Source: Candidatus Omnitrophota bacterium (GTDB taxonomy: Bacteria > Omnitrophota > Gorgyraeia > Aquiviventales > Aquiviventaceae). Taken from it: a stretch of DNA of 64,000 bases. Shown here piece after piece: positions 6,263 to 61,450 of the stretch. Each line of letters begins with the position of its first letter. The stretch's first letter is position 1. A program made the position numbers and the translations under genes. The stretch covers positions 2,773-66,772 of the forward strand of contig JAHFGV010000009.1 of NCBI GenBank assembly GCA_023247255.1, in the 5' to 3' direction. Under the pieces are notes generated by a model. That model ran no database searches. It saw only the letters and a list, made by a program, of their open reading frames with translations, and was not told the DNA's origin.

Positions 6263-7095
6263 TGCAAATGTACGAATCCTTCTACGGTCTTAAAGAAAAG
6301 CCTTTCAGTATGACGCCGGATCCGCGGTATTTCTATCCTTCGGCTAAGCACCAGGATGCGTTAAACCATATGGTCTACGCGATCCAGGAGCGCCGCGGAT
6401 TTGTCGTCGTCACCGGGGACATCGGTTCCGGCAAAACGACCCTCTCGCGCGTTCTCTTCCAGAAGCTGGATCCGGGCACTCAGACAGCGGTCATACGCAA
6501 CACGCAACTGACGGCCAAGGATTTGGTAGCCATGACGTTAGACGAGTTGGAAATTCCGTATGCCCCCGGCAGAACGAAGATGCAATTGATCGGCCTGTTA
6601 AACGAGTTTCTCATCCAACAGCTTAAGGACAATGCCAACGTCGTGCTTTTGATTGATGAAGCACAAAATCTCAAGCCCGCAGTCTTGGAAGAGGTCCGCA
6701 TGCTTTCCAACCTAGAGACGGAGAGGGAAAAGCTCATTCAGATTATCCTCATGGGTCAGCCGGAGCTTAAATCGACTCTGTGGTTAAAGTCGCTCACGCA
6801 ATTGCGTCAGCGCATTACGCTCCATTATCACCTGGCGCCTTTGGGTCAAGCGGAGATGGCGATTTACATTGGCCATCGGCTTCATGTCGCCGGCGCCAAT
6901 GGATTACCCATCTTCCGCTGTGATACCTTCCCGCAGATCTTTCACCACACTCAAGGGGTTCCCCGTCTCATTAACGCGATATGTGATCGGGCGCTTCTGA
7001 CCGGTTACATCAACGAGACCAAGACCATCGGCTCCGACGTCATTGACGAAGTCGCGCGCGAGCTTCCAGCACTGATGGAGCAACCCACCGCATGA
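6262..7095 (+). CDS. ExeA/GspA-like AAA ATPase (XrtA/PEP-CTERM-locus associated ATPase type)
   Basis: Walker A GDIGSGKTT, Walker B VVLLIDEAQ; N-terminal MQMYESFYGLKEKPF typical of ExeA-like proteins; ATG overlaps the preceding stop. Confidence 0.75.
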   Translation: MQMYESFYGLKEKPFSMTPDPRYFYPSAKHQDALNHMVYAIQERRGFVVVTGDIGSGKTTLSRVLFQKLDPGTQTAVIRNTQLTAKDLVAMTLDELEIPYAPGRTKMQLIGLLNEFLIQQLKDNANVVLLIDEAQNLKPAVLEEVRMLSNLETEREKLIQIILMGQPELKSTLWLKSLTQLRQRITLHYHLAPLGQAEMAIYIGHRLHVAGANGLPIFRCDTFPQIFHHTQGVPRLINAICDRALLTGYINETKTIGSDVIDEVARELPALMEQPTA

Positions 7096-7137
7096 ACGTA
7101 ATAAACGTAACACGTGACATGTTCACGTAACACGTAG

Positions 7138-7477
7138 CGAGGAACAGAAAAATACCCCTGGCTATCGGAAACTCCAGGGGTGGCAAGCTGCCATCGTCTG
7201 GCACATGAGGTTTATCGAGTTACCAGAAACTTCCCCCAAGAAGAACGGTTTGGAATAGTTGCCCAATGTAAGATGGGCTGCGCTTTCTGTGCCTACACAT
7301 TTAGTTGAAGGCCATGCTCGTGCTGGAAAACGAGAGCTGAGACGGTTCGTCGCTATGGCGCTCGGTTCGTTGGCAGAAGTCGAGTATCTCTTAGAACTGG
7401 GCTTTTGCAAAAATAGCCAACGCGTTGACCGAGTGTTGTGTCATTTCCCAAGAGAAGGTAATGAGGATTGTGTCATG
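7138..7477 (+). pseudogene. four-helix-bundle protein (23S rRNA intervening-sequence protein family) pseudogene: no start codon, frameshift near 7265, 3' end interrupted by MITE
   Basis: Frame A (7138-7255) reads ...SETPGVASCHRLAHEVYRVTRNFPQEERFGIVAQ. A second frame (7259-) reads VRWAALSVPTHLVEGHARAGKRELRRFVAMALGSLAEVEYLLELGF. Together these align to the intact paralogue at 9570-9932 (…NTIYKLTSTFPKEESYGLISQMRRAAVSVPVNIAEGYARNHRAELRQFLYVALGSLAELETL). Confidence 0.5.
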
Positions 7478-7586
7478 TTTCATGAGTCATGTGTCATGAA
7501 AAAAGCAGAAAATAAACAGGCATATCAAGCACGGCCAAAGTACGCCTTTTGCTTTCCATGACACATAACACATGACTCATGAAACA
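7469..7586. repeat. MITE-like hairpin repeat, copy 1 (arms built from CATGACACA/TGTGTCATG units around a ~58-bp core)
   Basis: Left arm tgtgtcatgtttcatgagtcatgtgtcatg, right arm catgacacataacacatgactcatgaaaca; core near-identical (1-2 mismatches) to reverse complement of 61338-61396. Confidence 0.55.
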
Positions 7587-7661
7587 GACGTGAGCGCTGC
7601 CACTAATCTCGATGCATTTTGCAAAACCTCTGTCACTTGTTACGTGTTACGGGAGTAACGA

Positions 7662-8582
7662 ATGAGCAAAATCACTCAGGCCCTTGAGAAGGCGGCGCGG
7701 GAGAGGCTCCAGCGCGAGAAGGAACAAGTTACAGTCGCTGCCAAGGAAACCACGATTCCCTTGGCCGCTTCGGCTCTTTCCGATATCGCCTCTGCGGGAG
7801 AGATCCAGATCGATTCCCACATTGTGGGAGCTACCGATTCGCAGTCTCCTATCGCTGAGCAATACCGCATCCTGCGCACTAATCTCCAGTCCTTGCGCTT
7901 TCAGTCGAGTCCAAAGGCCATCGTCATCACAAGCTCCGTGCATGGGGAAGGCAAGTCCGTGACTGCCCTCAATCTGGCCTTGGCTTTTTCCCGTCAAGAA
8001 AATCTCCGCGTAGTGCTCGTCGATGGGGATCTGCGCAAGGGTACGATTTGGAAATGGTTAGGTCTGCCTGAGCGTAGCGACGGTCTTGCGAGTGTGCTGC
8101 AAAGTGGCGGCCAGCTTAACGGTTCATTGGTGCGATTGCATCAGCCACCCCTGACGATTCTTCCGGCTGGTCTTGCTCCGGAACATCCTGCTGAGCTTCT
8201 GGAATCTTCCAGTATGAAGCGGCTGATTGGTACGCTGAAGGCTCAGTTCGACTTGGTTCTGATCGACTCTCCTCCTGTGCTTCCGGTTTCCGATCCCGGT
8301 ATTCTGGCCTCTCAGGTGGACGGGGTGTTGTTCGTTGTTCGAGCCGGCAGGACCCAGCGAAAGACGGTGATACAGGCCCAAAATCTCCTCAAGCAGATGA
8401 AGGCAACCTTCTTGGGTTGTGTCTTGACGCATGTGGAGTACTACCTTCCCGGCTATTACCGCTACTACCAGTATCGGTATGGCTCGAAAGAGCAGACAAG
8501 TGGCAAGGGAGTTAAAGACGGGGGCACGGGGCAAGAGACAGGGGGCGAGGGAAGACAAAAAGTACAAAGGAATACAGGTTAA
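7662..8582 (+). CDS. BY-family protein tyrosine autokinase (CpsD/CapB/Wzc cytoplasmic domain type)
   Basis: P-loop SSVHGEGKSVTALNLA, Walker B LVLIDSPPVL, C-terminal tyrosine cluster YYLPGYYRYYQYRYG. Confidence 0.8.
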   Translation: MSKITQALEKAARERLQREKEQVTVAAKETTIPLAASALSDIASAGEIQIDSHIVGATDSQSPIAEQYRILRTNLQSLRFQSSPKAIVITSSVHGEGKSVTALNLALAFSRQENLRVVLVDGDLRKGTIWKWLGLPERSDGLASVLQSGGQLNGSLVRLHQPPLTILPAGLAPEHPAELLESSSMKRLIGTLKAQFDLVLIDSPPVLPVSDPGILASQVDGVLFVVRAGRTQRKTVIQAQNLLKQMKATFLGCVLTHVEYYLPGYYRYYQYRYGSKEQTSGKGVKDGGTGQETGGEGRQKVQRNTG

Positions 8583-8752
8583 AAGATTACAAGATAAGAG
8601 ATGAAAAATACTAGGACCGGTTTTAAAAAAGGACGGGCGATGTCTAACTTTCAAGATTTGTGGGGATCTCTTATCAGTTCCCCCGCCCCCCGCCTCTCAT
8701 CCCCTGCCCCTAGTTTTGACTCCCTCGCCCCACGTCCCTTGCCCCATACTTT

Positions 8753-9541
8753 ATGAGAATGTTGACGTATCTACGTGAACTCTATCGCTACCGGGACCTC
8801 CTCTTCAGCCTAACGGCGCGTGACATTAAGGTGCGCTACCGCCAGACGCTGCTCGGAGTCGCATGGGCGGTTATGCAGCCTCTGGCTTTTATGTTCATCT
8901 TCACCCTGGTGTTTCAGAAATTCGGCAAGGTCAGCTCCGATGGAACCCCCTATCCCTTATTCTCTTATACGGGCCTTGTTCCGTGGACCTTTTTCTCGAC
9001 CAGCCTTGGGCTTGCCGTCAACTCGATTGCAGGCAACATGAGCCTTGTCAAGAAAGTCTATTTCCCCAAAGAGGTTTTTCCCATCGGTGTGGTTCTGGCA
9101 TGCTTCGTGGATTTCCTCATCGCCTCGAGTCTGGTAGGGGGGCTTTTAATGTTCTACCGGTTTCCGGTCAACGTGCAGATAATCTGGATTCCGTGGCTCA
9201 TCGGTCTTGAAATCGTTTTTTTGATCGGTATCAGTCTGCTTGTCTCTAGCCTGAACGTTTTCTTTCGAGACGTTAAATACATCGTTCCCCTGGCGGTGCA
9301 GCTCTTGATGTTCACCACCCCGGTTATCTATCCCACCTCGATGGTGCCTGAGCCTCTGCGGCGCTACTTTCTCCTCAATCCCATGGCTGTTGTTGTCGAT
9401 GGGGTGCGTCGTGTAGTCTTGCACGGACAACCCCCTGAGCTTGGGCCTCTCGTGCTTAGCACGGCGCTTGTCGGTCTCTTCGTTGGTCTCGCCTATGGTT
9501 ACTTCAAGCGCGTCGAAGTACGTTTTGCAGACCTCATCTAA
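8753..9541 (+). CDS. ABC-2 type polysaccharide exporter permease (Wzm-like)
   Basis: N-terminal YRYRDLLFSLTARDIKVRYRQTLLGVAWAVMQP signature of ABC-2 permeases; six predicted TM helices. Confidence 0.8.
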   Translation: MRMLTYLRELYRYRDLLFSLTARDIKVRYRQTLLGVAWAVMQPLAFMFIFTLVFQKFGKVSSDGTPYPLFSYTGLVPWTFFSTSLGLAVNSIAGNMSLVKKVYFPKEVFPIGVVLACFVDFLIASSLVGGLLMFYRFPVNVQIIWIPWLIGLEIVFLIGISLLVSSLNVFFRDVKYIVPLAVQLLMFTTPVIYPTSMVPEPLRRYFLLNPMAVVVDGVRRVVLHGQPPELGPLVLSTALVGLFVGLAYGYFKRVEVRFADLI

Positions 9542-9545
9542 AAGC

Positions 9546-9969
9546 GAGACAGGAGACAGGAGACAAGTGATGAAGCCAATTAAAAGTTACAGGGATCTTG
9601 AAACCTGGCAAGAGGGAATACGTCTTGTGAATACCATCTACAAACTTACCAGTACCTTTCCCAAAGAGGAGAGTTACGGACTCATTAGCCAGATGAGGCG
9701 TGCGGCTGTTTCTGTTCCAGTCAATATAGCGGAGGGGTATGCTCGCAACCACCGGGCGGAATTACGCCAATTCCTCTATGTTGCACTTGGGTCATTAGCT
9801 GAATTAGAAACGCTTAGCATTGTGGCTTGTCAAGTTAGTTATATTGATCAGGCCTGTCTCTCAAGAGAGCTTGAATCGTCCATAGCGGTCTTACGTTTTA
9901 AGACCTTAGCCTTCTTGCGTCATTTGAGGTAGCTTGCCATGTCTCCTGTCTCCTGTCTCCTGTCTCCTG
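9546..9969. mobile_element. hairpin-terminated insertion between wzm and wzt carrying the four-helix-bundle gene; arms are heptamer arrays (GAGACAG)x3 at 9546-9567 and (GTCTCCT)x4 at 9941-9969
   Basis: Arms are reverse complements of each other; right arm supplies the ATG and first ~10 codons (MSPVSCLLSPAP) of the downstream ABC ATPase. Confidence 0.4.
9570..9932 (+). CDS. four-helix-bundle protein (23S rRNA intervening-sequence protein family)
   Basis: MKPIKSYRDLETWQEGIRLVNTIYKLTSTFPKEESYGLISQMRRAAVSVPVNIAEGYARNHRAELRQFLYVALGSLAELETL matches family signature; track start 9441 overlaps wzm and is rejected. Confidence 0.7.
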   Translation: MKPIKSYRDLETWQEGIRLVNTIYKLTSTFPKEESYGLISQMRRAAVSVPVNIAEGYARNHRAELRQFLYVALGSLAELETLSIVACQVSYIDQACLSRELESSIAVLRFKTLAFLRHLR

Positions 9970-11216
9970 CGCCATGTCCCATTACGTTCGATCACGTCTG
10001 GAAACGCTACCGCATAGGCTCCAAACATGACAGCCTCCGCGATGCGATTCCTCGATTCTTTAAGCAAGAGGCCGGACTCAATGGACAATCATTGCACGAA
10101 GGCGAGTTCTGGGCGATTCAGGACGTGACTTTTGAAGTCAAACATGCCGAGACCGTGGGCATCATCGGACCCAATGGGGCGGGCAAGAGTACCGCTTTGA
10201 AACTGCTCTCCAAAATCTGCAAGCAAACGAAAGGACAGATACAAGTGATCGGCCGCCTGGCCGCGTTGATTGAAGTGGGTGCCGGTTTTCATCCTGATCT
10301 GACCGGCCGCGAAAATATTTATCTCAACGGGACCATCATGGGTCTGCGCCGCAAAGAGATCGACCGACTCTTTGATTCGATCGTGGAGTTCTCGGAACTT
10401 AAAGACTTCCTCGAGATGCCCGTGAAGCGTTACTCTTCGGGAATGGCGGTGCGTCTGGGATTTTCGGTCGCCGCTCACGTCAACCCGGAGGTTTTGCTGA
10501 TCGATGAGGTGCTTGCCGTCGGGGATCTCGTTTTTCAGCAGAAATGTTACCAACGCCTGCAGGATCTAAAGGCGGCTGGGACGACAATCGTGTTTATCTC
10601 GCACAACCTGGAGGCGATTCAACGGCTCTGTGACCGCGTTGTTCTCCTGGACAAGGGGCTCCTCATCCAGGAAGGAAATCCGGCCGAGGTCATCGCGGGC
10701 TATCGCAACAAGGTCCTCCAGACATACCGTTCCAAGATGCGCCTGCCGCATGGCAATGTCATCGAGGAACGGTCTCTCGATGAGGTGGCATTCACGCAGG
10801 CTTTTCTCACAGACGCCTCTGGCAATATCTCAGACGCATTCTCTACGGGAGATACCGTCAGATTGCACCTGAGCTACCACGCTAAGCGGAATATCGAGCA
10901 GCCCAGGATTGTGGTTACGATCGAACGCCTCGATGGACTCGTCTGCCACACCACCTCAACCGCACATGCCATAGATGCATTCACTATCTCCGAAGGCGAC
11001 GCTAGCCTGATGTTGGAATACGACGCTTTGAACCTGTTGCCAAACACGTATCGGATTCAGGCAGCCCTCTTCGAACATAACAATCCCGTTCCCTTGTCCG
11101 CATCCAGCTATCAACTCTATTTCACCTTGACCTCAGACAGTCCTGAGATTGGGGCTGTGCATCTCGATCATCACTGGGACACAAAGGTGATTCCTGCAAG
11201 AGACAAAGTCCATTAA
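9939..11216 (+). CDS. ABC transporter ATP-binding protein Wzt-like with ~150-aa C-terminal extension (probable carbohydrate/terminal-cap binding domain)
   Basis: Walker A GPNGAGKST, signature YSSGMAVRLGFS, Walker B LLIDEVLAVGD; residues ~270-425 form an extra domain beyond the NBD. Confidence 0.8.
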   Translation: MSPVSCLLSPAPCPITFDHVWKRYRIGSKHDSLRDAIPRFFKQEAGLNGQSLHEGEFWAIQDVTFEVKHAETVGIIGPNGAGKSTALKLLSKICKQTKGQIQVIGRLAALIEVGAGFHPDLTGRENIYLNGTIMGLRRKEIDRLFDSIVEFSELKDFLEMPVKRYSSGMAVRLGFSVAAHVNPEVLLIDEVLAVGDLVFQQKCYQRLQDLKAAGTTIVFISHNLEAIQRLCDRVVLLDKGLLIQEGNPAEVIAGYRNKVLQTYRSKMRLPHGNVIEERSLDEVAFTQAFLTDASGNISDAFSTGDTVRLHLSYHAKRNIEQPRIVVTIERLDGLVCHTTSTAHAIDAFTISEGDASLMLEYDALNLLPNTYRIQAALFEHNNPVPLSASSYQLYFTLTSDSPEIGAVHLDHHWDTKVIPARDKVH

Positions 11217-25653: not shown

Positions 25654-27120
25654 ATGGCTTTCAAGTCCTTTAACACGGCGATTCCGGTTGCGCTGCAGAC
25701 GCGGCGAGCGCTCCCCACCATTGACCGGCGCATATGGCTCATGGCGGTTTTGGCCTGTGGGTTTGCGGTCTTGGTGATGAAGGAGGTCGCATTGCCTTCA
25801 TCCCTCATCTTAGTTTTTGGGGGGCTGGGACTCTTCGCTTTGTTTGCAGTCGGCCTCCAGAGTCCGGAGATTCCGTTCTACGTGCTGGTTGCTTACCTCC
25901 CGTTTAGCCGTCTACTCGTCGGTGATTTCGGTACCCAGGCGACGGCGCTGAATCTTACCAACATCTTCACCTTAGGGGTGTTCATCGCTCATGTGTTTCG
26001 GCAAGGAGCGCGTGGACAAGCCCCATTTCAATCCACACCGTTGAATCGTATGATCTCGTTGTTCTGCGCCTTAGGGGCGGCCGCTTTGATACGGGCGGGT
26101 TGGGATTATGGTTCCTGGTATGCCTGGCACTATCTCATTCCCCTCAAGCGTTGGCTTACCCCGATGTTTCTTTACTTCCTCACGCTTTGGGTGGTGCGAG
26201 ATAAAAGAGTGCTGAAGACTTCAGCGATCCTCATCATGATCGTCGTGACTCTGGTTGCCCTCATGGCGATTCGGGATTACATGAATGTCGAGGGAAGCGG
26301 CTTTGAAGCCTCGCGCATCGGAGGGATCGCCGAACATTCCAATACCTTGGGGGCTTTCTTCGTCTACTACATGTTTTTACATCTAGGTTTCTTCCTCACC
26401 CACACTTCGAGGCCTCGAGCGTGGCTTTTATTGATTCCGTTTCTGCTTTGCTTCCGGGGAATCATGGTGACATTCTCCCGCGGGGCTTACCTGGCATTCG
26501 CGATAGGATCTCTGGCAGCCTGTTGGTTTCGACATAAGCTCTTGTTCGTTACCGCCGTAGTCGCACTGGTGTTTGCGATTCTCAATCCGACGTTGTTGCC
26601 TTCAGGGATTCGCTACCGGATGGGAATGACGATAATTCATCATGATACGGGTGTGGTTCAAGAGGACATCACGCAGAACCTCGAGGGCAGCTCGGCCTCG
26701 CGTATTGAGATATGGCGCGGAGCGCTCAAGATGATCCAGGATCATCCTTGGTGGGGGGTCGGTTACGAAGCCTTTCCTCGGTTCATGCCAAGTTATACCG
26801 AGGGAAAGATCGGATACATGGACGCCCATAATAGCTATCTCTTAATCGCTGCAGAGATGGGTTTACCGACTCTCGGTGTCTTTCTACTCGTTCTTTTAAT
26901 GATTGGATACTATACCCACTGGCTCTATCGGCATGCCCAGGACAAGGCGTTGAAGGCTATCGCCCTGGGATTCTTGGCGGGGTTGGCCGGGCTGTGGGTG
27001 GCGAATCTCTTCGGTTCACGCATGGACCACGCAGAGGTATCCGGATACTTCTGGATTATTTGTGGCCTTATTATGCGCGGCGTGTTGATTGAGCGGCAGG
27101 AATTAGCACACAGCAAATAG
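25654..27120 (+). CDS. O-antigen ligase/polymerase family membrane protein (Wzy_C-like)
   Basis: ~11 TM helices with a periplasmic loop; DAHNSYLLIAAEMGLPTLGVFLL matches the O-antigen ligase/Wzy_C motif. Confidence 0.65.
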   Translation: MAFKSFNTAIPVALQTRRALPTIDRRIWLMAVLACGFAVLVMKEVALPSSLILVFGGLGLFALFAVGLQSPEIPFYVLVAYLPFSRLLVGDFGTQATALNLTNIFTLGVFIAHVFRQGARGQAPFQSTPLNRMISLFCALGAAALIRAGWDYGSWYAWHYLIPLKRWLTPMFLYFLTLWVVRDKRVLKTSAILIMIVVTLVALMAIRDYMNVEGSGFEASRIGGIAEHSNTLGAFFVYYMFLHLGFFLTHTSRPRAWLLLIPFLLCFRGIMVTFSRGAYLAFAIGSLAACWFRHKLLFVTAVVALVFAILNPTLLPSGIRYRMGMTIIHHDTGVVQEDITQNLEGSSASRIEIWRGALKMIQDHPWWGVGYEAFPRFMPSYTEGKIGYMDAHNSYLLIAAEMGLPTLGVFLLVLLMIGYYTHWLYRHAQDKALKAIALGFLAGLAGLWVANLFGSRMDHAEVSGYFWIICGLIMRGVLIERQELAHSK

Positions 27121-27147
27121 CACACAGCACATGGCAGACACAACGGA

Positions 27148-29631
27148 ATGAAGGGATCCCACTCCGAACTCCAAACTCCGAATTCCGAATCCCGAACTGG
27201 GAAACATGTCCTATATCCCAGCCTGGGTATGATCGTTTCCCAATTCCCAGAGATGCACGAGACGTTCATCATGCGGGAACTGAGCGCGTTGCGCGATGCA
27301 GGAATTCCTCTGCGTATCTATTCATTGAAACGCTGCCGCGATCCTATCGTACATCCGCAAGCGCAAAAACTTCTCGGGTTGACTCGCTATGTGGTATGGA
27401 ACGATGCCGTTGTTTGGGTACGTGCGGCCGGGTTAGTTCTCCGGCGTCCGATGCGGGCGTTCTCGATACTCGGCTGGGTGGTTCGCCATCATTCTGGGAG
27501 GGCTTTCCTTTTGGCAAAGGCGCTCGTGGTATGGGCACAGGCGATTGTAATCGCCGAGAAGATGCGCGAGGAGGGGATTACGCATATCCATGCGCATTGG
27601 GCAACGGTGCCGACGACGGCGGCTGTGATCGCTTCCGATTGGCTGGGTATTCCCTTTAGCTTCACGGCGCACGCGTGGGATATCTTTGTTCGGAATCCAT
27701 CCCTGAAAGAGAAGATACGACTTTCAGCTAGGGTGATGACCTGCACGGATTACAACCGGCGGTTTCTCCAGCACTTGTGTCCGGGAGAGCGAGAGAAGAT
27801 CATCGTGAACTATCACGGCGTGGACCTCGGGAAGTTTCAACAACTACAACAAGAGACAAGAAACAGGGGACAGGGGACATGTTTTGTGTCTCCTATCTCC
27901 CGTCTCCCGTCTCCCGTCTCCTGTCCCGTTTTTCTATCGGTGGGTCGGCTCGTTGAGACCAAAGGCTATCCTGTTCTTTTGGAAGCCTACCGACGGCTGA
28001 AGTCGGAGGGCATGGCGTTTCACGCGGTGATCGTTGGGGAAGGTTGCCTGCGTGATAGGCTGGAACATCAGATTCGTGTGAACCATCTGGCCGATGTCGT
28101 CGAGTTGAGAAACGCGATGGGGCAGGAGGCACTACGCAAGCTCTATCGGGATGCCTTCGCCTTTGTCCTGCCTTGCACCGTTGCTGAAGACGGGGACCGC
28201 GATGGGATTCCGAATGTCATTCTCGAGGCCATGGCTTGTAGTTTGCCGATAGTCTCGACACAGATCTCGGGAATCCCAGAAGCCGTGCAGGATCGCCGCA
28301 GCGGATTGTTGGTTCCACCCAACGATGGGGAAGAGCTCGCTCGCGCCTTGAAACTTTTGCTGCAGCGGCCGAGTTTTGCCCGTGTATTGGGTGACCACGG
28401 GCGAATGTGGGCGGAGTGTACGTTTGACGCCCGCGAGCATATGCAACAACTCGTGGTTCGGATGAGGGGGTTGTTAGAGAAATCTGTTAGACCCGTTAAC
28501 GTCATGTACGTCATTTGGTCGCTGGAGGTCGGTGGGGCAGAGCGTGTTGTGATGACGCTCGCCAGTGGCCTGGACCGTAAGCGGTTTTCTCCGATCGTGG
28601 TGTGTCTCAATCAGGAAGGACGTATGGCGGCCATGCTTAAACAGCAAGGGATTACTGTGATTGCCCTGAACAAGCGTCCGGGAGTCGATTTGGGGATGCT
28701 GGTGCGTCTGGCGTGGTTGATGAGGCAGCATGGCGTGCAAGTTGTGCACGCGCATCTATGGGGAGCGAATCTGTGGGCGCGTATCGCTGCCATGATGGCA
28801 AGGGTACCGGTCGTCATTGTCCACGAACACGGGATGCAGCCTTGGCGAGGAACCTGGCATTTCCGAATCGACCGTTGGCTGGGACGAAGAACGAGCCGGA
28901 TTCTCTTTGCATCCTCGGAAGTCATGCAGAAGTATGGTGCAAAGACGGGGATGGCACAAAGGCGTTGCCTGTGGGTTCCCAATGGAATCGACGGGAGGCC
29001 GCAAGGATTGGATCGTACCCGTTTGCGAGCACGATTGGGTTTTTCCGATGAAGATCGCGTCGTGATCAGTGTCGGCCGACTCTCACCAGAGAAAGGGCAT
29101 GAAGATTTGTTGCTTGCCTTCGCTCAACTGAGGCAACAGGTGCCTCAGGCGCGTTTGGTATTGGTAGGAGACGGGATAGAGCGAGACACGCTCCAGGCGC
29201 TTCAAGCACGCTGTGGACTTAACGGTGAAGTGACCTTCGCGGGAGTGCAGGACGACGTGCGTCCGTGGCTCGCTGCTGCCGACGTCTACGTTCAGCCTTC
29301 GAGGCGGGAAGGTTTGTCACTGGCCGTTCTTGAGGCGATGGCCTTCGGGCTTCCCGTCATCGCGACCCATGTAGGGGATACGGCACGTGTCATTACCGAT
29401 GGAATGACAGGATACCTAGTGCCTGCTCAGCAACCGGAGGTCTTATCGGCTAAGCTCAAGCAGGTTCTCGATCAACGGGATCAGCAAGGAACTTTAGTAG
29501 AGGCGGCCCGCGCGCTTGTGCAGCGTGATTACTCCGAGCGCCAGATGGTGGGGATAGTGGAGAGGGTTTACGAGGAAGAACTCGTCAAAGAAACAATAAT
29601 TAGCACACAGCAATTAGTACACAGCACATAG
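27148..29631 (+). CDS. tandem GT4–GT4 glycosyltransferase (WbdA-like architecture)
   Basis: Two complete GT4 modules: DGIPNVILEAMACSLPIVSTQISGIPEAV (res ~350) and REGLSLAVLEAMAFGLPVIATHVGDTARVI (res ~720). Confidence 0.8.
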   Translation: MKGSHSELQTPNSESRTGKHVLYPSLGMIVSQFPEMHETFIMRELSALRDAGIPLRIYSLKRCRDPIVHPQAQKLLGLTRYVVWNDAVVWVRAAGLVLRRPMRAFSILGWVVRHHSGRAFLLAKALVVWAQAIVIAEKMREEGITHIHAHWATVPTTAAVIASDWLGIPFSFTAHAWDIFVRNPSLKEKIRLSARVMTCTDYNRRFLQHLCPGEREKIIVNYHGVDLGKFQQLQQETRNRGQGTCFVSPISRLPSPVSCPVFLSVGRLVETKGYPVLLEAYRRLKSEGMAFHAVIVGEGCLRDRLEHQIRVNHLADVVELRNAMGQEALRKLYRDAFAFVLPCTVAEDGDRDGIPNVILEAMACSLPIVSTQISGIPEAVQDRRSGLLVPPNDGEELARALKLLLQRPSFARVLGDHGRMWAECTFDAREHMQQLVVRMRGLLEKSVRPVNVMYVIWSLEVGGAERVVMTLASGLDRKRFSPIVVCLNQEGRMAAMLKQQGITVIALNKRPGVDLGMLVRLAWLMRQHGVQVVHAHLWGANLWARIAAMMARVPVVIVHEHGMQPWRGTWHFRIDRWLGRRTSRILFASSEVMQKYGAKTGMAQRRCLWVPNGIDGRPQGLDRTRLRARLGFSDEDRVVISVGRLSPEKGHEDLLLAFAQLRQQVPQARLVLVGDGIERDTLQALQARCGLNGEVTFAGVQDDVRPWLAAADVYVQPSRREGLSLAVLEAMAFGLPVIATHVGDTARVITDGMTGYLVPAQQPEVLSAKLKQVLDQRDQQGTLVEAARALVQRDYSERQMVGIVERVYEEELVKETIISTQQLVHST
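27853..27927. repeat. 75-bp hairpin repeat inserted in frame inside the GT4–GT4 gene (arms gagacaagaaacaggggacaggggaca / tctcctatctcccgtctcccgtctcccgtctcctgtccc)
   Basis: Self-complementary arms around tgttttgtg loop; encodes RNRGQGTCFVSPISRLPSPVSCP linker; same GACAGG/CCTGTC heptamer family as 9546-9969. Confidence 0.5.
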
Positions 29632-29634
29632 CAT

Positions 29635-31128
29635 ATGGCAGACCGCAAACCGAAAACTGCTTCCCAGCCACGTAGGCACGTAGGCACGGATGCACGACGT
29701 GTCTCCTCTGCCTTGTCTGCTCTCCCACGTTTCAAGCGTAAGGTTGTCATGGGGCTGAGCTTATTGCTCATCATCGGTTACGTGGCTAAGCTCGTCGATA
29801 CGCGCTATCCCTGGCTGTGGGCTTACCTGCTGGATCAGATCAGACCTCAGACGGTGCAAGCATCCGCAGGCCCGACCCACGTCCTGTTCACTTTCGTCGA
29901 CCATTTTGAACCGCACGACCAAGCGACCATGGATCGGTGGATGAGCGCTTATCCCCAGATGGCTGCGCGCCATCGCGATGCCGATGGACGTTTTCCGCAA
30001 CACTCGTGGTTTTGGCATTTCAGCTATGCCGATGGATTCGAGACCTTGTCGTACCTGAAGCAGCTGGCCGAGCTTTCTTATCAAGGATTCGGAGAGGTGG
30101 AGCTGCACCTGCACCATGGGCCCGATTCCGAAGAGAGCTTTTTAGAGCTCATGCGCAAGCGCCTGCAACTTTCACGATGGACGGGTTCGATGGTGACGGC
30201 CGAGACAAGGCCACAGACGCATTTTGGATTCATTCACGGATTATGGGCGCTGGACAATTCACGCGGGGGTAAGACCTGCGGTGTCAATAATGAGTTGACG
30301 CTGCTGGCACGTTTAGGCTGCTATGCGGATTTTACGCACCCCTCATGGGGGCCTATGCATCCGCGGATGGTCAATCGGCTTTACTACGCGACGGACGATC
30401 CGATGCGTCCTAAGTCCTATGACCGAGGTCCGGTCATGCAGGTGGGACGCTTACCTATCGGGGACCTGCTCATTTTCGAAGGGCCCAGTGTGGTGCGCTT
30501 GCGCGGTATCAAACCCGTCTATGACCATGGGGATGTGACGCAGGTAGATCTTCCGACCTCCGAGCGCGTCGATGCCTGGGTGCGAACCGGTATTCACGTC
30601 GAGGGACGTCCCGAGTGGGTTTTTATCAAAGTCTACACGCATGGGGCCATTGCGCGAGACCATGAGGCAGTCCTAGGACGCTGGAGCGACCGGATGCATG
30701 AATACCTGGAAGGTCATTACAACGATGGTGAGCGTTACGTCCTGCACTACGTCACGGCCCGCGAGGCCTACAACATCGCCAAGGCTGCGGAGGTGGGTAA
30801 ATCTGGGGATCCCAATGCGTTCCGTGATTTCGTTATCCCTCCCTACGCGAACCGGACCCTCATAGCCTCCGTACCCTATGAGCTCATCAGCGCTGACGAA
30901 GAGAAGTTGTGGGTGCGGTTGCTGACGCCACCCAGCAGTCGTGTAAGTATGCGATTGCATGCGCGCGTCGTTGACGTTTCTGGCGATGCGTCTGACATCG
31001 TGATTGAGCCCACGGATGAAGATACAGGGCTTACTCTCGCCACGACAGGAGAAGGAATCGTAACGTTTGAGTATGAGAGAAGAGGTATCAATCAGCAAGT
31101 AGCACATAGAGCAGATGGTACAAGATGA
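29635..31128 (+). CDS. hypothetical membrane-anchored protein (alternative start 29749)
   Basis: Single TM (MGLSLLLIIGYVAKLV) then large soluble domain with His-rich motifs (ELHLHHG); the region 29635-29748 overlaps a repeat so the true start may be the ATG at 29749. Confidence 0.5.
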   Translation: MADRKPKTASQPRRHVGTDARRVSSALSALPRFKRKVVMGLSLLLIIGYVAKLVDTRYPWLWAYLLDQIRPQTVQASAGPTHVLFTFVDHFEPHDQATMDRWMSAYPQMAARHRDADGRFPQHSWFWHFSYADGFETLSYLKQLAELSYQGFGEVELHLHHGPDSEESFLELMRKRLQLSRWTGSMVTAETRPQTHFGFIHGLWALDNSRGGKTCGVNNELTLLARLGCYADFTHPSWGPMHPRMVNRLYYATDDPMRPKSYDRGPVMQVGRLPIGDLLIFEGPSVVRLRGIKPVYDHGDVTQVDLPTSERVDAWVRTGIHVEGRPEWVFIKVYTHGAIARDHEAVLGRWSDRMHEYLEGHYNDGERYVLHYVTAREAYNIAKAAEVGKSGDPNAFRDFVIPPYANRTLIASVPYELISADEEKLWVRLLTPPSSRVSMRLHARVVDVSGDASDIVIEPTDEDTGLTLATTGEGIVTFEYERRGINQQVAHRADGTR

Positions 31129-32303
31129 ACCGAGCGACGAGCGACGAGCAACGAACCACGTCCCCCGCACCTTGCCCCATAAAGGTGGTCTACGTGATTG
31201 ACGATTTGGGCCTGGGAGGGGCGCAGAGGCAACTGACCGAGCTCGTTAGGGCGATCGACCGCAGCCGGTATCAGCCTTACGTGGTGAGTCTTTCAACCCA
31301 GCGCTTGGCTTACGCTAAGAATATTCGTGAGCTTGAGATTCCCTTGACGCTGATTGAGCATGAAGGGATATGGTCTTGGCGAACCCTTTGGCAGATCCTT
31401 CGCTTGCTGCAAAGGGTGCGGCCTACCGTCGTGCACACGTGGCTTTTCACCGCCGATCTCTATGGACGCCTGGCGGCTTGGCTGACGCGCGTGCCGGTGA
31501 TCGTCAGTGCCGTCCGCAGCGTGGATCCTTGGAAGCCGAGACATTACATTTTTGCGGATCGGCTCTTGTGCAATGTGACGAGCGCTTTTACTGTCAATGC
31601 GCAGGCTATCGGCGAGGTGCTTCGTAAGCGAGAGGGCGTTGAGCCCTCCAAACTCCATACGATCTATAACGGGGTGGATCTTTCGGCGTTCGATCCTTCG
31701 ATTCAGGATGGAGCGCTCCGGCGTCATCTTGGACTGGATAGAGTCGTTCGGCTTGTGGGTATCGTCGGACGTCTGGCTCCGGAGAAGGATCATCAGACGT
31801 TTCTGCACTCCGCAAGGTTGGTGGTAGAGCGTCATCCGGATGTTCGTTTCCTCATCGTCGGCAATGGTCCGCTGCGATCCGAGCTCGATGCGATGATCCG
31901 CAAGCTGAAACTACAGGCTCATGTCCACATGCTGGAGAGTCAGCAGCCGATCACTCCGATCTTCGCCGCCCTCGATATGGTTGTCGTCAGCTCGCGCTAC
32001 GAAGGCTGCTGCAACGTCATTCTAGAGGCTATGGCGATGGGCAAGCCCGTTATCGCCACAGACGTAGGAGGAAATCCGGAGTTGGTGAGTCACGAAGAAA
32101 CGGGATTTTTGATTCCGCCCGGGGAGCCCCAAGCGATGGCTGAGGCTATCGAGCGACTCTTGCAGCAGCGCTCTCGCGCGCAGTACTTCGGGCAGCAGGC
32201 GCGGCGTATCGTAGAGTCCCGGTTTAATCTGAAGCGCATGATCGATCAGACGATGGCTTTGTATGACGCACTGCTATGTCGTGTTGGCCCGTTAACGCGT
32301 TAG
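31125..32303 (+). CDS. glycosyltransferase family 4
   Basis: VVYVIDDLGLGGAQRQ N-terminus and EGCCNVILEAMAMGKPVIATDVGGNPELV C-terminal GT4 motif. Confidence 0.8.
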   Translation: MNRATSDEQRTTSPAPCPIKVVYVIDDLGLGGAQRQLTELVRAIDRSRYQPYVVSLSTQRLAYAKNIRELEIPLTLIEHEGIWSWRTLWQILRLLQRVRPTVVHTWLFTADLYGRLAAWLTRVPVIVSAVRSVDPWKPRHYIFADRLLCNVTSAFTVNAQAIGEVLRKREGVEPSKLHTIYNGVDLSAFDPSIQDGALRRHLGLDRVVRLVGIVGRLAPEKDHQTFLHSARLVVERHPDVRFLIVGNGPLRSELDAMIRKLKLQAHVHMLESQQPITPIFAALDMVVVSSRYEGCCNVILEAMAMGKPVIATDVGGNPELVSHEETGFLIPPGEPQAMAEAIERLLQQRSRAQYFGQQARRIVESRFNLKRMIDQTMALYDALLCRVGPLTR

Positions 32304-36525: not shown

Positions 36526-36903
36526 GTGACAAGGGATAAATTAGGTTTGCGCGTTAGCCCGTTAAAATCTTAAACCCGCAAACGCGCTAACTTTTTTGGT
36601 TCTTCCGGCTTTGCAGTGGTTAAAAGGAACAATACTTCCCTCTCCCCAAAGGGGAGAGGGATCGGGTGAGGGGAAGATACTCAGGAGAGCGGAGAATAGG
36701 TTGCATTACCGCCATGCCGATTCGACGCTGCACTCAGCGCAAGGGGCAACCTTTCATTTGCTGCGCTCAGTATGAGTGAAGCCGATCCGATTGGCACATT
36801 TCCCTCCACCAACCCCCCCTCGCCCTAACCCTCTCCCTTTTCAGGGAGAGGGGAAAGAATGCCCATGGTAATCCCGGAAGCGCCAGCTTTTTAAGGTATC
36901 CTC

Positions 36904-59869: not shown

Positions 59870-61302
59870 CGGTTGCTGTTGCGCTCTCAGGATCGGTCCA
59901 TACGCTGGAGGGTTGGGCGTCTCAGAAATCTGTGTCTGATGTGTTTGGAGATAGCTGGGCCGGACGTCGAGTCACCGTCTTGGGGTTGGCCAGAAGTGGC
60001 GTTGCTGCGGCTGAGTTGCTTTGTCGAATCGGTTGTCGGGTGGGGCTTTCGGAGCTTCGGGATACGCCGGCCACACGCTCGGCGCAGGCGATACTGCGAG
60101 AACGAGGCATAGAGGTTGTAGAACTCGGGGGGCACTCTCGAGAGCTCATTACCGCATCGGATCTCGTGGTGGTCAGCCCTGGGATTTCGGAGACTGCCGA
60201 GCCTGTTGTGTGGGCCCGTGAGCTGGGATTGCCGGTCTTAAGCGAGATTGAGCTGGCCTTTCATTTCTGTCCGGTACCAGTCGTCGCTGTCACCGGCACT
60301 AACGGAAAGAGTACCGTGGTGACGCTCATTGCCGAAGTTCTGCGCAGTTGTGGCAGGCAAGCGATCGCCTGCGGCAACTTAGGCCTTCCTTTTTCAGCCG
60401 TGATCGGACGATTCGGTCCCAAGGGTATTGCAGTGGTAGAGGTTAGTTCTTTTCAGCTTCTTCATTGTGAGCGCTTTCGACCCCGTATTGGAGTCCTGTT
60501 AAATCTGGGTACCAACCACCTTGACCGCCATCCGAATTGGCAAACCTATTGTGAAGCCAAACGGCGGCTGTTCCAAGCGCAAACCCAAAAGGATTGGGCG
60601 GTGCTCAACGGGACCGATACCTCGGTCGTGGCGTTGGGTGAGGGACTGCTCGCTCAGCGCGTGTGGTTCGGTCAGAATCGGTCCAATGGCCCCGATTGGT
60701 TTCTGAGTCCCAAGACCCAGGCCAGTTTATCTGAGACGGCACAGGCGGTCCTTCAGGTGGCGCGGATTCTCGATATCCCGGATCCGTTGACCTGGCAGGT
60801 GATTCGTTCGTTTCGGGGATTGGAACATCGATTGGAGCCTGTGGCGACGATCCGCGGGATTCGATTCATCAACGATTCTAAATCGACCACACCGGAAAGC
60901 CTGCTGTATGCCTTGAAACGTCTTTCCGGGGAACTGGTGTTGATCATCGGAGGAAGGGACAAGGGTTTAAACTTCCAGCCGTTGATTGCCGCGCTTAAAG
61001 AGCCGCGCATCAAGGGACTGGTGTTGATCGGAGAATCCCGTCGCAGACTTCGTCAGTTACTGGATGAGGCTCTCCTCGCTGAGTTTGTCTCTCATGGTCG
61101 ATCCGTTGGCGCATCCTCTCGTTCTGTTTGGCAAGTGCGCGAATGCGACTCGTTGGAACAGGCCCTTGAGGCTGCGATTTCTCTGGCTCATCCGGGGACC
61201 ACGGTGCTGTTTTCTCCCGCGTGCGCCAGCTTTGACATGTTCCAGGATTTCGAACAACGAGGCCAGCGTTTCAAGGCAATCGTGCAGAAGCTGGTGTCAT
61301 GA
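59866..61302 (+). CDS. murD: UDP-N-acetylmuramoylalanine–D-glutamate ligase
   Basis: VVAVTGTNGKSTV P-loop, N-terminal Rossmann VTVLGLARSG. Confidence 0.85.
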   Translation: MTVAVALSGSVHTLEGWASQKSVSDVFGDSWAGRRVTVLGLARSGVAAAELLCRIGCRVGLSELRDTPATRSAQAILRERGIEVVELGGHSRELITASDLVVVSPGISETAEPVVWARELGLPVLSEIELAFHFCPVPVVAVTGTNGKSTVVTLIAEVLRSCGRQAIACGNLGLPFSAVIGRFGPKGIAVVEVSSFQLLHCERFRPRIGVLLNLGTNHLDRHPNWQTYCEAKRRLFQAQTQKDWAVLNGTDTSVVALGEGLLAQRVWFGQNRSNGPDWFLSPKTQASLSETAQAVLQVARILDIPDPLTWQVIRSFRGLEHRLEPVATIRGIRFINDSKSTTPESLLYALKRLSGELVLIIGGRDKGLNFQPLIAALKEPRIKGLVLIGESRRRLRQLLDEALLAEFVSHGRSVGASSRSVWQVRECDSLEQALEAAISLAHPGTTVLFSPACASFDMFQDFEQRGQRFKAIVQKLVS

Positions 61303-61450
61303 AAGACTGTTTCATGTTTCATGTGTCATGAGTCATGGAAAGCAAAAGGCGTACTTTGGCCGTGCTTGAGATGCCTGTTTATTTTCTGCTTTTTTCATGA
61401 CACATGAACCATGACACAGCCCTTATTACTTCTCTTGGAACATGACACAA
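61297..61450. repeat. MITE-like hairpin repeat, copy 2 (inverted relative to copy 1), occupying the whole murD–ftsW spacer
   Basis: 61338-61396 equals reverse complement of 7501-7560 with 1-2 mismatches; flanking TGTGTCATG/CATGACACA arrays; murD stop lies in the first unit. Confidence 0.55.

Follow-up and report, generated by a model that had tools for sequence, protein, structure and literature searches.

What is a gene of the former '23S rRNA intervening-sequence protein' family doing between the two genes of an ABC exporter, in the loop of a hairpin built from 7-nt repeats? The wzm-wzt junction at positions 9546 to 9969 of a 64,000-nt stretch of Candidatus Omnitrophota DNA (the window) raises this question. 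The gene codes for a four-helix-bundle (4HB) protein of PF05635/TIGR02436, and on either side of it lies an array of heptamers, one the reverse complement of the other. We consider it likely that this is one copy of a widespread, promoter-less 4HB cassette which is bounded by inverted heptamer arrays, stands in sense orientation in an operon spacer and resembles the intervening sequences (IVS) of 23S rRNA, and whose arms would form a transcript duplex with a role in masking and in translational coupling and/or RNase III cleavage. The window copy appears to reveal a general architecture which has been undescribed so far. Coordinates are positions in the window, all listed features are on the + strand, and labels of the type L0xx and L1xx denote comparison loci. 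The junction is composed as follows.

8753 to 9541, + strand: wzm, coding for an ABC-2 permease (PF01061 at 3.8e-17; 93% identical to the Wzm of L086).
9546 to 9566, + strand: left arm, GAGACAG GAGACAG GAGACAA, paired with the right arm in the minimum-free-energy and centroid RNA folds.
9570 to 9932, + strand: 4HB gene, 120 aa, from ATG 9570 to TAG 9930-9932 (PF05635/TIGR02436; Avd-like fold).
9926 to 9929, + strand: GAGG, candidate Shine-Dalgarno sequence of wzt, within the final 4HB codons and 9 nt before the wzt ATG.
9939 to 11216, + strand: wzt, coding for an ABC ATPase (ABC_tran) with a Wzt_C domain; the conserved Wzt core begins P14-I-T-F.
9940 to 9969, + strand: right arm, TGTCTCC x4 (9940-9967) plus TG, the reverse complement of the left arm; it codes for Wzt residues 1-11.

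The left arm begins four nt beyond the wzm stop codon (TAA, 9539-9541), and its three units end 3 nt 5' of the 4HB ATG. Within the last unit and 7 nt 5' of this ATG is GGAG (9559-9562), which is likely the Shine-Dalgarno sequence of the 4HB gene. Judged from its position, GAGG at 9926-9929 probably has the same function for wzt, the ATG of which follows 7 nt downstream of the 4HB stop codon. A repeat search returned the inverted repeat either as 20 nt with 100% complementarity (9546-9565 and 9940-9959) or as 25 nt with 92%. The 14-mer GAGACAGGAGACAG has 19 matches with up to three mismatches in the window, compared with 5.76 ± 2.14 per shuffled sequence, and none of 100 shuffles reached 19. 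The flanking arrays described in the initial annotation are therefore present as reported; the right one, given there as GTCTCCT x4, is TGTCTCC x4 read in a register one base later.

The right arm is at the same time the beginning of a gene. ATG 9939 lies one base ahead of the arm, at its inner end; it is the sole in-frame start of wzt and the first after the in-frame TAG of the 4HB gene, and the first ~11 codons that follow are arm-encoded. The proposal that the right arm provides the wzt start is borne out in L087, L131, L132 and L134, in which wzt starts within the right arm as well. Likewise, the element had been called 'not neutral', and this view fits the comparison, as wzt of all orthologous copies starts in the right arm and the right arm of L091 has outlived the loss of the remainder. 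Wzt homologues outside this clade begin M-x-P-I, without the 10-13 arm-encoded residues. The ATPase of this ABC exporter is essential and takes its start codon and N-terminus from the cassette, a clean loss of which is thus no longer possible.

Is this arrangement peculiar to the junction? To compare family members, 80 loci were fetched with one genome per species from ~20 phyla, including Methanophagales and Methanobacteriota archaea, candidate phyla radiation (CPR) bacteria and cyanobacteria; flank statistics refer to the 75 loci with complete flanks. The lag-7 self-match of the best 21-nt window averaged 14.9 upstream and 14.7 downstream of the 4HB gene against 8.9 in controls, and among lags 3 to 12 only lag 7 was enriched in 4HB flanks over control. 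With a lag-7 threshold of 15/21, 60/75 loci scored in one or both flanks but only 9/447 control windows did, and at the same threshold the flanks of other genes from the same loci scored in 9/79 cases upstream and 10/75 downstream. The two flanks also pair with each other: their mutual stem score was 12 or higher in 49/75 loci but only in 2/375 controls. Two independent sets replicated the association (21/26 JGI metagenome loci and 30/38 viral-contig loci). The heptamer-array architecture is a rule for the PF05635 family across bacteria and archaea.

The unit itself varies by locus (CGTGAAG, GGGGATA, GTCAGTA, GTGACGA, CGGGAGT and others), and the arrays match within a locus and differ between loci. 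When the right consensus heptamer is reverse-complemented, it is the same as the left one at 6 or 7 of the 7 positions in 23 of 27 loci, which is seen in only 5.6% of mismatched locus pairs. A universal consensus was sought and discarded, as there is just a weak core NNN-A/C-G-T/G-G with 3.7 bits against 2.9 bits in shuffled controls. Most arrays have 3-6 units, with right arrays of up to 15. Two features of the arrangement are directional. On the coding strand, the array 5' of the gene is rich in G and poor in C, with more G than C in 45/47 loci, and between co-directional neighbours the 4HB gene shares their orientation in 46 cases and is reversed in 5.

These numbers bear on the simplest alternative, namely that unrelated simple-sequence repeats or G-quadruplex motifs adjoin the gene by chance. 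Heptamers have indeed been described as free-standing intergenic repeats, such as GGGAATC and GGGGAYT (PMC4692102) and TAACTGA (PMC4679880). A chance neighbourhood, however, is at odds with an enrichment which is specific to lag 7 and to 4HB flanks and with two arms which match each other, so that we regard this explanation as extremely improbable. G-quadruplexes were ruled out since GAGACAG is without G-tracts.

The protein in the loop is a clear member of its family. The 4HB open reading frame (ORF) matches PF05635 at 2e-32 with 112 bits (curated cut-off 33.8) and TIGR02436 at 1.3e-29 with 102.6 bits (curated cut-off 24). Its AlphaFold monomer model has four helices with a pLDDT of 94.8. In a Foldseek search of this model, the best match was 2GSC (XCC0516; TM 0.90, rmsd 1.2), next 2RLD (BT_0352) and then Avd 4DWL (TM ~0.78); a profile search of PDB sequences likewise led from the window protein to 2GSC at 1e-39. 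The residues R44, S48, N52 and E55 of the motif RxxxSxxxNxxE are invariant in the family alignment, and the window protein reads RRAAVSVPVNIAEG; the family motif was published as GxxRxxxSxxxNxxE (PMC3936711). Values of dN against orthologues are 0.18-0.35 while dS is saturated, hence the protein is under purifying selection. PADLOC was consulted for membership in a defence system and matched neither 4HB variant.

Many homologues of the window protein also match PF22296 bAvd. With Avd of the diversity-generating retroelements the 4HB protein has the fold and the Pfam neighbourhood in common, at a sequence identity of ~11%. The genes around the window element code for transporters, a kinase, asparagine synthases and glycosyltransferases. 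No reverse transcriptase domain was found among the products called from ~2 kb upstream to 10 kb downstream, and no template/variable repeat pair was found nearby. The PF05635 family has more than 594 confirmed matches among those listed in one genome scan, from ~20 phyla and archaea. It is rare in viral contigs, with 40 matches in 2.9 million contigs against the more than 594 among the matches listed in genomes.

The solved relatives 2GSC and 2RLD have five chains each, which invites a comparison with TRAP, the trp attenuation protein ring of Bacillus, which binds spaced triplet repeats in RNA. By this comparison, a putative homopentameric 4HB ring would bind the G-rich 5' array with one heptamer per subunit, compete with the hairpin, autoregulate 4HB and gate downstream translation. 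The usual array length of 3-6 units, the position of the G-rich array on the 5' side of the coding strand and the weak common core of the heptamers would all fit such a ring. For a conserved protein, however, the heptamers are very diverse, and right arrays of up to 15 units also speak against it. A regulator of the TRAP type is quite unlikely in our view.

Do the arrays and the ORF belong together as one unit? Heptamer similarity between loci climbs with the identity of their 4HB proteins, from 3.7-3.8/7 below 60% to 4.5 at 60-70%, 5.4 at 70-80% and 5.7 at 80-90%. Copies with GTGACAA/GTGACGA arms occur in Chthoniobacterales, Gemmataceae, Pyrinomonadaceae and the L087 organism at sites with non-homologous flanks; the first three lineages belong to Verrucomicrobiota, Planctomycetota and Acidobacteriota, respectively, and their proteins are ~69% identical mutually. 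When the DNA of these four copies is aligned, the similarity is bounded exactly by the left and right arrays.

Close relatives of the window show such units being exchanged. L086 is the closest of them (Wzm 93%, Wzt 91% identical), and its wzm-wzt spacer contains a different 4HB gene (4HB-B, 33% identical) with GTTAGCG/CGCTAAC arms; homology with the window stops at the wzm stop codon and returns at the Wzt codons P-I-T-F. Between L092 and L135, the identity of the Wzm proteins is 95%. The order in L135 is [4HB-C]-wzm-[4HB-A]-wzt, and in L092 there is nothing upstream of wzm and an internally deleted 4HB-C in the wzm-wzt spacer, with the 3' end of the 4HB-C ORF and the right array near-identical across the slots of L135 and L092. 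Hence, the arrays and the ORF are one discrete heritable unit, which occurs at unrelated sites and has been swapped between slots in close relatives. The earlier idea of a mobile unit with the 4HB gene as cargo is supported by the array-bounded homology at unrelated sites, by the slot swap between L135 and L092 and by the different cassette in L086.

The copy in the window is an old one. Close relatives of its protein (65-74% identical) are all at the wzm-wzt junction; none was found at other genomic sites, and the only close JGI metagenome match is the L087 locus. Because all close relatives are at the same junction and synonymous sites are saturated, the copy is not a recent insertion. Carriers of this 4HB lineage span the Wzt clade, with identities to the window of 80%, 69% and 67% over the N-terminal ~200 residues of Wzt. 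Since L086, L092 and L091 branch within this group of carriers, the 4HB lineage of the window is ancestral at the junction and the other states are derived. Five orthologous copies keep their stems despite divergence (20/20, 22/25, 21/24, 29/37 and 20/22 paired positions), with units changed on both arms (GAGACAG, GAGACGG/GGGACAA, GAGACAA/GAGACAT, GGGACAT). Judged from these alignments, the window copy is an old, apparently still functional, vertically inherited cassette under purifying selection. As to the mobile-element interpretation of this copy, the part about a mobile family stands; a recent insertion is not what we find, and the copy is an old, vertically inherited resident.

A relative with the same spacer, no 4HB gene and an identical wzt N-terminus had been named beforehand as contrary evidence, and L091 comes partly into this category. 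It is without the 4HB gene and the left arm, and a solo right-type array (TGTCTCA/TGTCCCA) codes for its Wzt N-terminus, which is similar to that of the window. L091 reads as a loss because it is nested among 4HB-carrying relatives.

On a shorter time scale, it is mainly the arrays in which the near-identical strains L117 and L120 differ, with an indel of 15 nt and an identical substitution made in two units together. At L117:1630-1700, there are also 14 substitutions within ~60 nt around the conserved SxPxNIAEG motif of the 4HB ORF, plus a 1-nt indel, when compared with L120. This patch suggests gene conversion from a paralogous copy.

Unit indels are what a phase-variation switch would require. 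In this explanation, gain or loss of one or two of the 7-nt units in the 5' coding end of wzt shifts the frame and toggles polysaccharide export. There are four heptamers between the wzt ATG and the conserved Wzt core, and indels of units do occur between near-identical strains, at the other locus just described (L117/L120). In L091 and L134, moreover, an ATG is present in every right-arm unit (CATGTCT/CATGTCC; L091:725-790, L134:1224-1290), so that each frame has a start codon. As 7 is not a multiple of 3, three successive ATG units cover all frames, so that the wzt start of these two loci would survive a change in unit number. The arrays are, however, identical in four independently assembled contigs of the wzm-wzt locus, four units are short for efficient slippage, and a switch leaves both the left arm and the family-wide 4HB association unexplained. 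We consider phase variation very unlikely.

How would such a cassette act in its operon? When the RNA of the locus is folded, the arms pair (-150.8 kcal/mol, z = -3.5). No sigma-70-like promoter was found in 8400-10200, and the arms are not terminator-like. Rfam at permissive E-values gave no rRNA match and no meaningful RNA family for 6500-10500. The promoter-less cassette would presumably rely on read-through transcription of the host operon. Once transcribed, the arms would form a duplex of 20-30 bp which hides the 4HB ribosome-binding site (GGAG) and the wzt ATG. With this ATG masked, translation of wzt would therefore need ribosomes translating 4HB and/or a cut by RNase III. Ribosomes which finish the 4HB ORF 7 nt before the wzt ATG may open the duplex, coupling wzm to 4HB to wzt, and/or RNase III may cleave the duplex, by analogy with the Coxiella IVS. 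The arrays probably evolve in concert at the DNA level by slippage and arm-to-arm conversion.

Some observations weigh against an IVS-like cassette that acts through its transcript. About 15% of family members are without detectable arrays. Neither is a target-site duplication visible at the compared cassette boundaries, and no enzyme for movement was found. On the sense strand of 77 stems, G.U-type mismatches (61) are not above A.C-type mismatches (67; p = 0.66), hence complementarity is not visibly kept by selection on a sense-strand RNA helix, and a DNA-level process could explain it equally well. In addition, an RNase III cut in the middle of the stem would part the wzt ATG from its coding body, which is awkward for simple beneficial processing.

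The DNA-level process can be put in concrete terms. Eukaryotic foldback (FB) transposons have long inverted termini of short tandem repeats in variable number and a loop with or without an ORF. A foldback-type transposable element in prokaryotes would have the arrays as terminal inverted repeats of tandem binding sites, where a 4HB pentamer brings in host enzymes or a reverse transcriptase so that the element is moved or maintained, with RNA pairing being incidental. The missing G.U over A.C bias of the stems is in line with this, as are the exact match of unit boundaries to the arrays, the climb of heptamer similarity with protein identity, and the array unit indels and concerted unit changes between near-identical strains; in addition, the nearest protein of known function is Avd, part of a reverse transcriptase-RNA complex. 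The 4HB protein, however, is without a catalytic domain, no target-site duplication is seen, and the window copy and its neighbours have kept the same slots through saturated synonymous divergence. The sense orientation (46 vs 5) and the G-rich 5' arm (45/47) are strand-specific, so the constraint is probably at the transcript level. To FB transposons themselves there is an analogy only, with no homology, another host domain and a window ORF which is not a transposase. On balance, an element that works at the DNA level seems unlikely to us, and we continue with the transcribed, IVS-like cassette as the preferred interpretation.

The IVS of rRNA are the closest known systems. In Coxiella, the 23S rRNA IVS has a 28-bp stem and GACAGAT x3 plus GACAGAA directly before the ATG of the S23p gene, with a strain-variable number of units, and RNase III cleaves it at the first repeat (PMC4990558). 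Like the IVS of Coxiella and Leptospira, the window element has a 4HB/S23p ORF in the loop of a terminal-inverted-repeat stem of ~20-28 bp (20 nt at 100% or 25 nt at 92% in the window). As in Coxiella, tandem heptamers end a few nt before the ATG (GACAGAT x3 there, GAGACAG-type x3 here), and transcription would likewise come from a host promoter. Unlike the IVS, the window element is in the wzm-wzt mRNA spacer rather than in helix 25 or 45 of 23S rRNA, and its right arm doubles as coding sequence of the gene next to it. The proteins also differ: purifying selection acts on the one in the window, and the Coxiella ORF is in decay. Of the 80 fetched loci, none was in an rRNA gene, and the rRNA location of IVS appears to be a rare special case of the cassette.

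Besides the wzm-wzt copy, the window holds a whole population of heptamer-built structures.

7096 to 7660, + strand: decayed second cassette in the slot between an ATPase gene and a tyrosine-kinase gene.
7465 to 7586, + strand: ORF-less hairpin element of ~120 bp, copy 1, nested in the decayed cassette (RNA fold -47.6 kcal/mol, z = -7.0).
8520 to 8747, + strand: hairpin with a 168-nt loop but no 4HB gene, occupying the slot that separates the tyrosine-kinase gene from wzm.
27161 to 27196, + strand: solo array of 5 ACTCCGA-type units, just 5' of a GT4 glycosyltransferase gene.
27853 to 27927, + strand: 'empty' hairpin of the GAGACAG/TGTCTCC family with a 5-6-nt loop, in frame (75 nt) in a GT4 glycosyltransferase gene.
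31131 to 31190, + strand: solo C-rich array (CGAGCGA x2, CGAGCAA, ... CGTCCCC CGCACCT TGCCCCA), coding for the N-terminus of a GT4 glycosyltransferase.
36543 to 36591, + strand: small hairpin of GTTTGCG/CGTTAGC units, the fold of which is weakly better than shuffles (z = -1.1).
61302 to 61424, + strand: ORF-less hairpin of ~120 bp, copy 2, between murD and ftsW (RNA fold -49.5 kcal/mol, z = -6.2).

7096-7660: The arms of the decayed cassette are ACGTAAC/ACGTGAC units at 7096-7138 and GTCACTT GTTACGT GTTACGG at 7632-7660. Between them is a 4HB pseudogene (~7139-7440) without a start codon, with an in-frame TAG at 7256-7258 and with its C-terminus interrupted by the nested 120-bp element. The pseudogene is most similar to the second, intact 4HB of L087, which occupies the same slot (49% identity, E 5e-22), and the fragment matches PF05635 at 1e-9. 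Both copies of the ~120-bp hairpin have TGTTTCA/TGTGTCA/TGAGTCA heptamer arms and a conserved ~60-nt loop, the orientation of which is opposite between the copies.

8520-8747: The arms are of the GGGGCAA/GGGGCGA type at 8528-8552, with the reverse complement at 8721-8745, and the relatives L131 and L135 have intact 4HB cassettes in this slot upstream of wzm. A remnant of 4HB in the loop (8553-8720) was suspected by eye from the N-terminal-like 'MSNFQDLW', but tblastn with 116 family proteins gave nothing significant, and the claim was dropped. As a separate observation, the left arm lies within the tyrosine-kinase ORF 7662-8582 and codes for its C-terminal tail (...KDGGTGQETGGEGRQ...), 3' of a Tyr-rich cluster.

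27853-27927: The initial annotation had listed this region as an empty copy; it is real, and its heptamers belong to the same family as the wzm-wzt arms. The units are GAGACAA GAAACAG GGGACAG GGGACAT on one side and TGTCTCC TATCTCC CGTCTCC x3 on the other, and the RNA fold has -31.2 kcal/mol (z = -3.0). The insert sits in a variable inter-domain linker, and most GT4 homologues are 12-20 residues shorter there.

36543-36591: The heptamers are of the family which flanks the replacement cassette (4HB-B) of L086. In L086 itself, an extra nested hairpin (GAGTTTGCGGGTTTGCGTGTTTAAATCCTAAACCCACTAACTCGCAAACACGCTAACTC; L086:860-935) stands between the left array and the 4HB-B start and is a near-lookalike of the window hairpin.

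From these copies and those at the junction, we conclude that cassettes decay to internally deleted copies, ORF-less hairpins and solo arrays, and that neighbouring genes have co-opted arm sequence as coding sequence, for example for the start and N-terminus of Wzt, the C-terminal end of the tyrosine kinase and the linker of the glycosyltransferase.

Elements of this kind invite comparison with other small repeats of prokaryotes. The stems of Correia elements are RNase III substrates. Correia elements of Neisseria, ERIC and REPINs resemble the cassettes in that they are small palindromic elements in operon spacers and co-transcribed, with ORF-less copies outnumbering others (see also PMC3116915). 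They differ in having a conserved arm sequence, target-site duplication and a transposase supplied in trans, whereas the cassettes have arms of locus-specific tandem heptamers and, in many copies, a non-enzymatic ORF of their own.

The prokaryotic heptanucleotide repeats, i.e., the cyanobacterial short tandemly repeated repetitive (STRR) sequences, GGGAATC, GGGGAYT and TAACTGA, are similar to the arrays as tandem 7-nt units, usually ~four, which lie in short spacers of co-directional genes and are transcribed. For GGGAATC, 70-75 convergent (inverted) pairs with a preference for four units were reported in Xanthomonas, and GGGGAYT was described in Nostoc (PMC4692102); TAACTGA heptamer repeats are found in Beggiatoaceae (PMC4679880). 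In this literature, unlike in our loci, the repeats are regarded as free-standing quadruplex or translational signals, with no link to 4HB genes (PMC4692102, PMC4679880). Our data suggest that many known heptanucleotide repeats may be arms or remnants of 4HB cassettes. In another study, 18 family members were found interspersed in cas operons, and repeats are unmentioned there (PMC3936711). No prior statement of the family-wide heptamer rule was found in the open-access literature; an earlier description is possible outside it.

A more far-reaching combination of these points can be formulated. PF05635 cassettes would be unrecognised pan-prokaryotic autonomous hairpin elements, with the rRNA IVS as a minor subset; a pentamer ring would bind RNA or single-stranded DNA at its own heptamers, with each subunit recognising one unit, and thereby drive spread or maintenance, and decayed cassettes would be the main source of the heptanucleotide-repeat excess (STRR, GGGAATC). 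As a whole, we hold this combination to be doubtful.

The association matters for a large family which is still of 'function unknown' after 30 years and takes its name from an rRNA location that now looks atypical. With the heptamer hairpin, the 4HB family acquires a nucleic-acid partner that defines it, and the question of where rRNA intervening sequences come from becomes tractable. Heptanucleotide repeats are over-represented in prokaryotes for reasons so far unexplained, and the cassettes are a concrete candidate source. Annotation is affected as well, with systematic artefacts from extensions encoded by the arms, from hairpins inserted in frame and from contigs that break at these elements. 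Most contigs with family members are very short, consistent with assembly breaks at these elements. One such sequence was left unused: L003:1040-1367 shows no difference from the window across the 4HB gene and the right arm, after which it runs into unrelated GC-rich sequence with an opposite-strand gene; this tail is absent from the window, and the contig is most likely an assembly chimera at the repeat.

Some minor observations concern the neighbourhood of the arrays. The peptide SPAPCPI is common to the N-termini of Wzt (9939-9980) and of the GT4 glycosyltransferase at 31125, each read from a C-rich heptamer array. Heptamer runs of the AGCACAC/AGCAAAT/AGCACAT type at 27100-27145 and 31090-31125 overlap the stops of upstream genes; they are not complementary to the arrays after them and may be remnants of other cassettes. 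The ORF at 27232-29628 (799 aa) consists of two complete GT4 glycosyltransferases fused to each other (EpsE-like 1-405, TIGR03088-like 423-784), the homologues of which are fused or separate. In an Acidobacteriaceae metagenome-assembled genome, an Acido-Lenti-1 RNA (RF01687, 54.7 bits; L025:3029-3074) is located ~1.2 kb downstream of a 4HB cassette. Finally, at 36620-36860 in the window there is an inverted repeat with 26-nt arms 142 nt apart and its own small palindrome in each arm (ctctccccaaaggggagag and ccctctcccttttcagggagagg), which is not heptamer-built and has a REP-like look.

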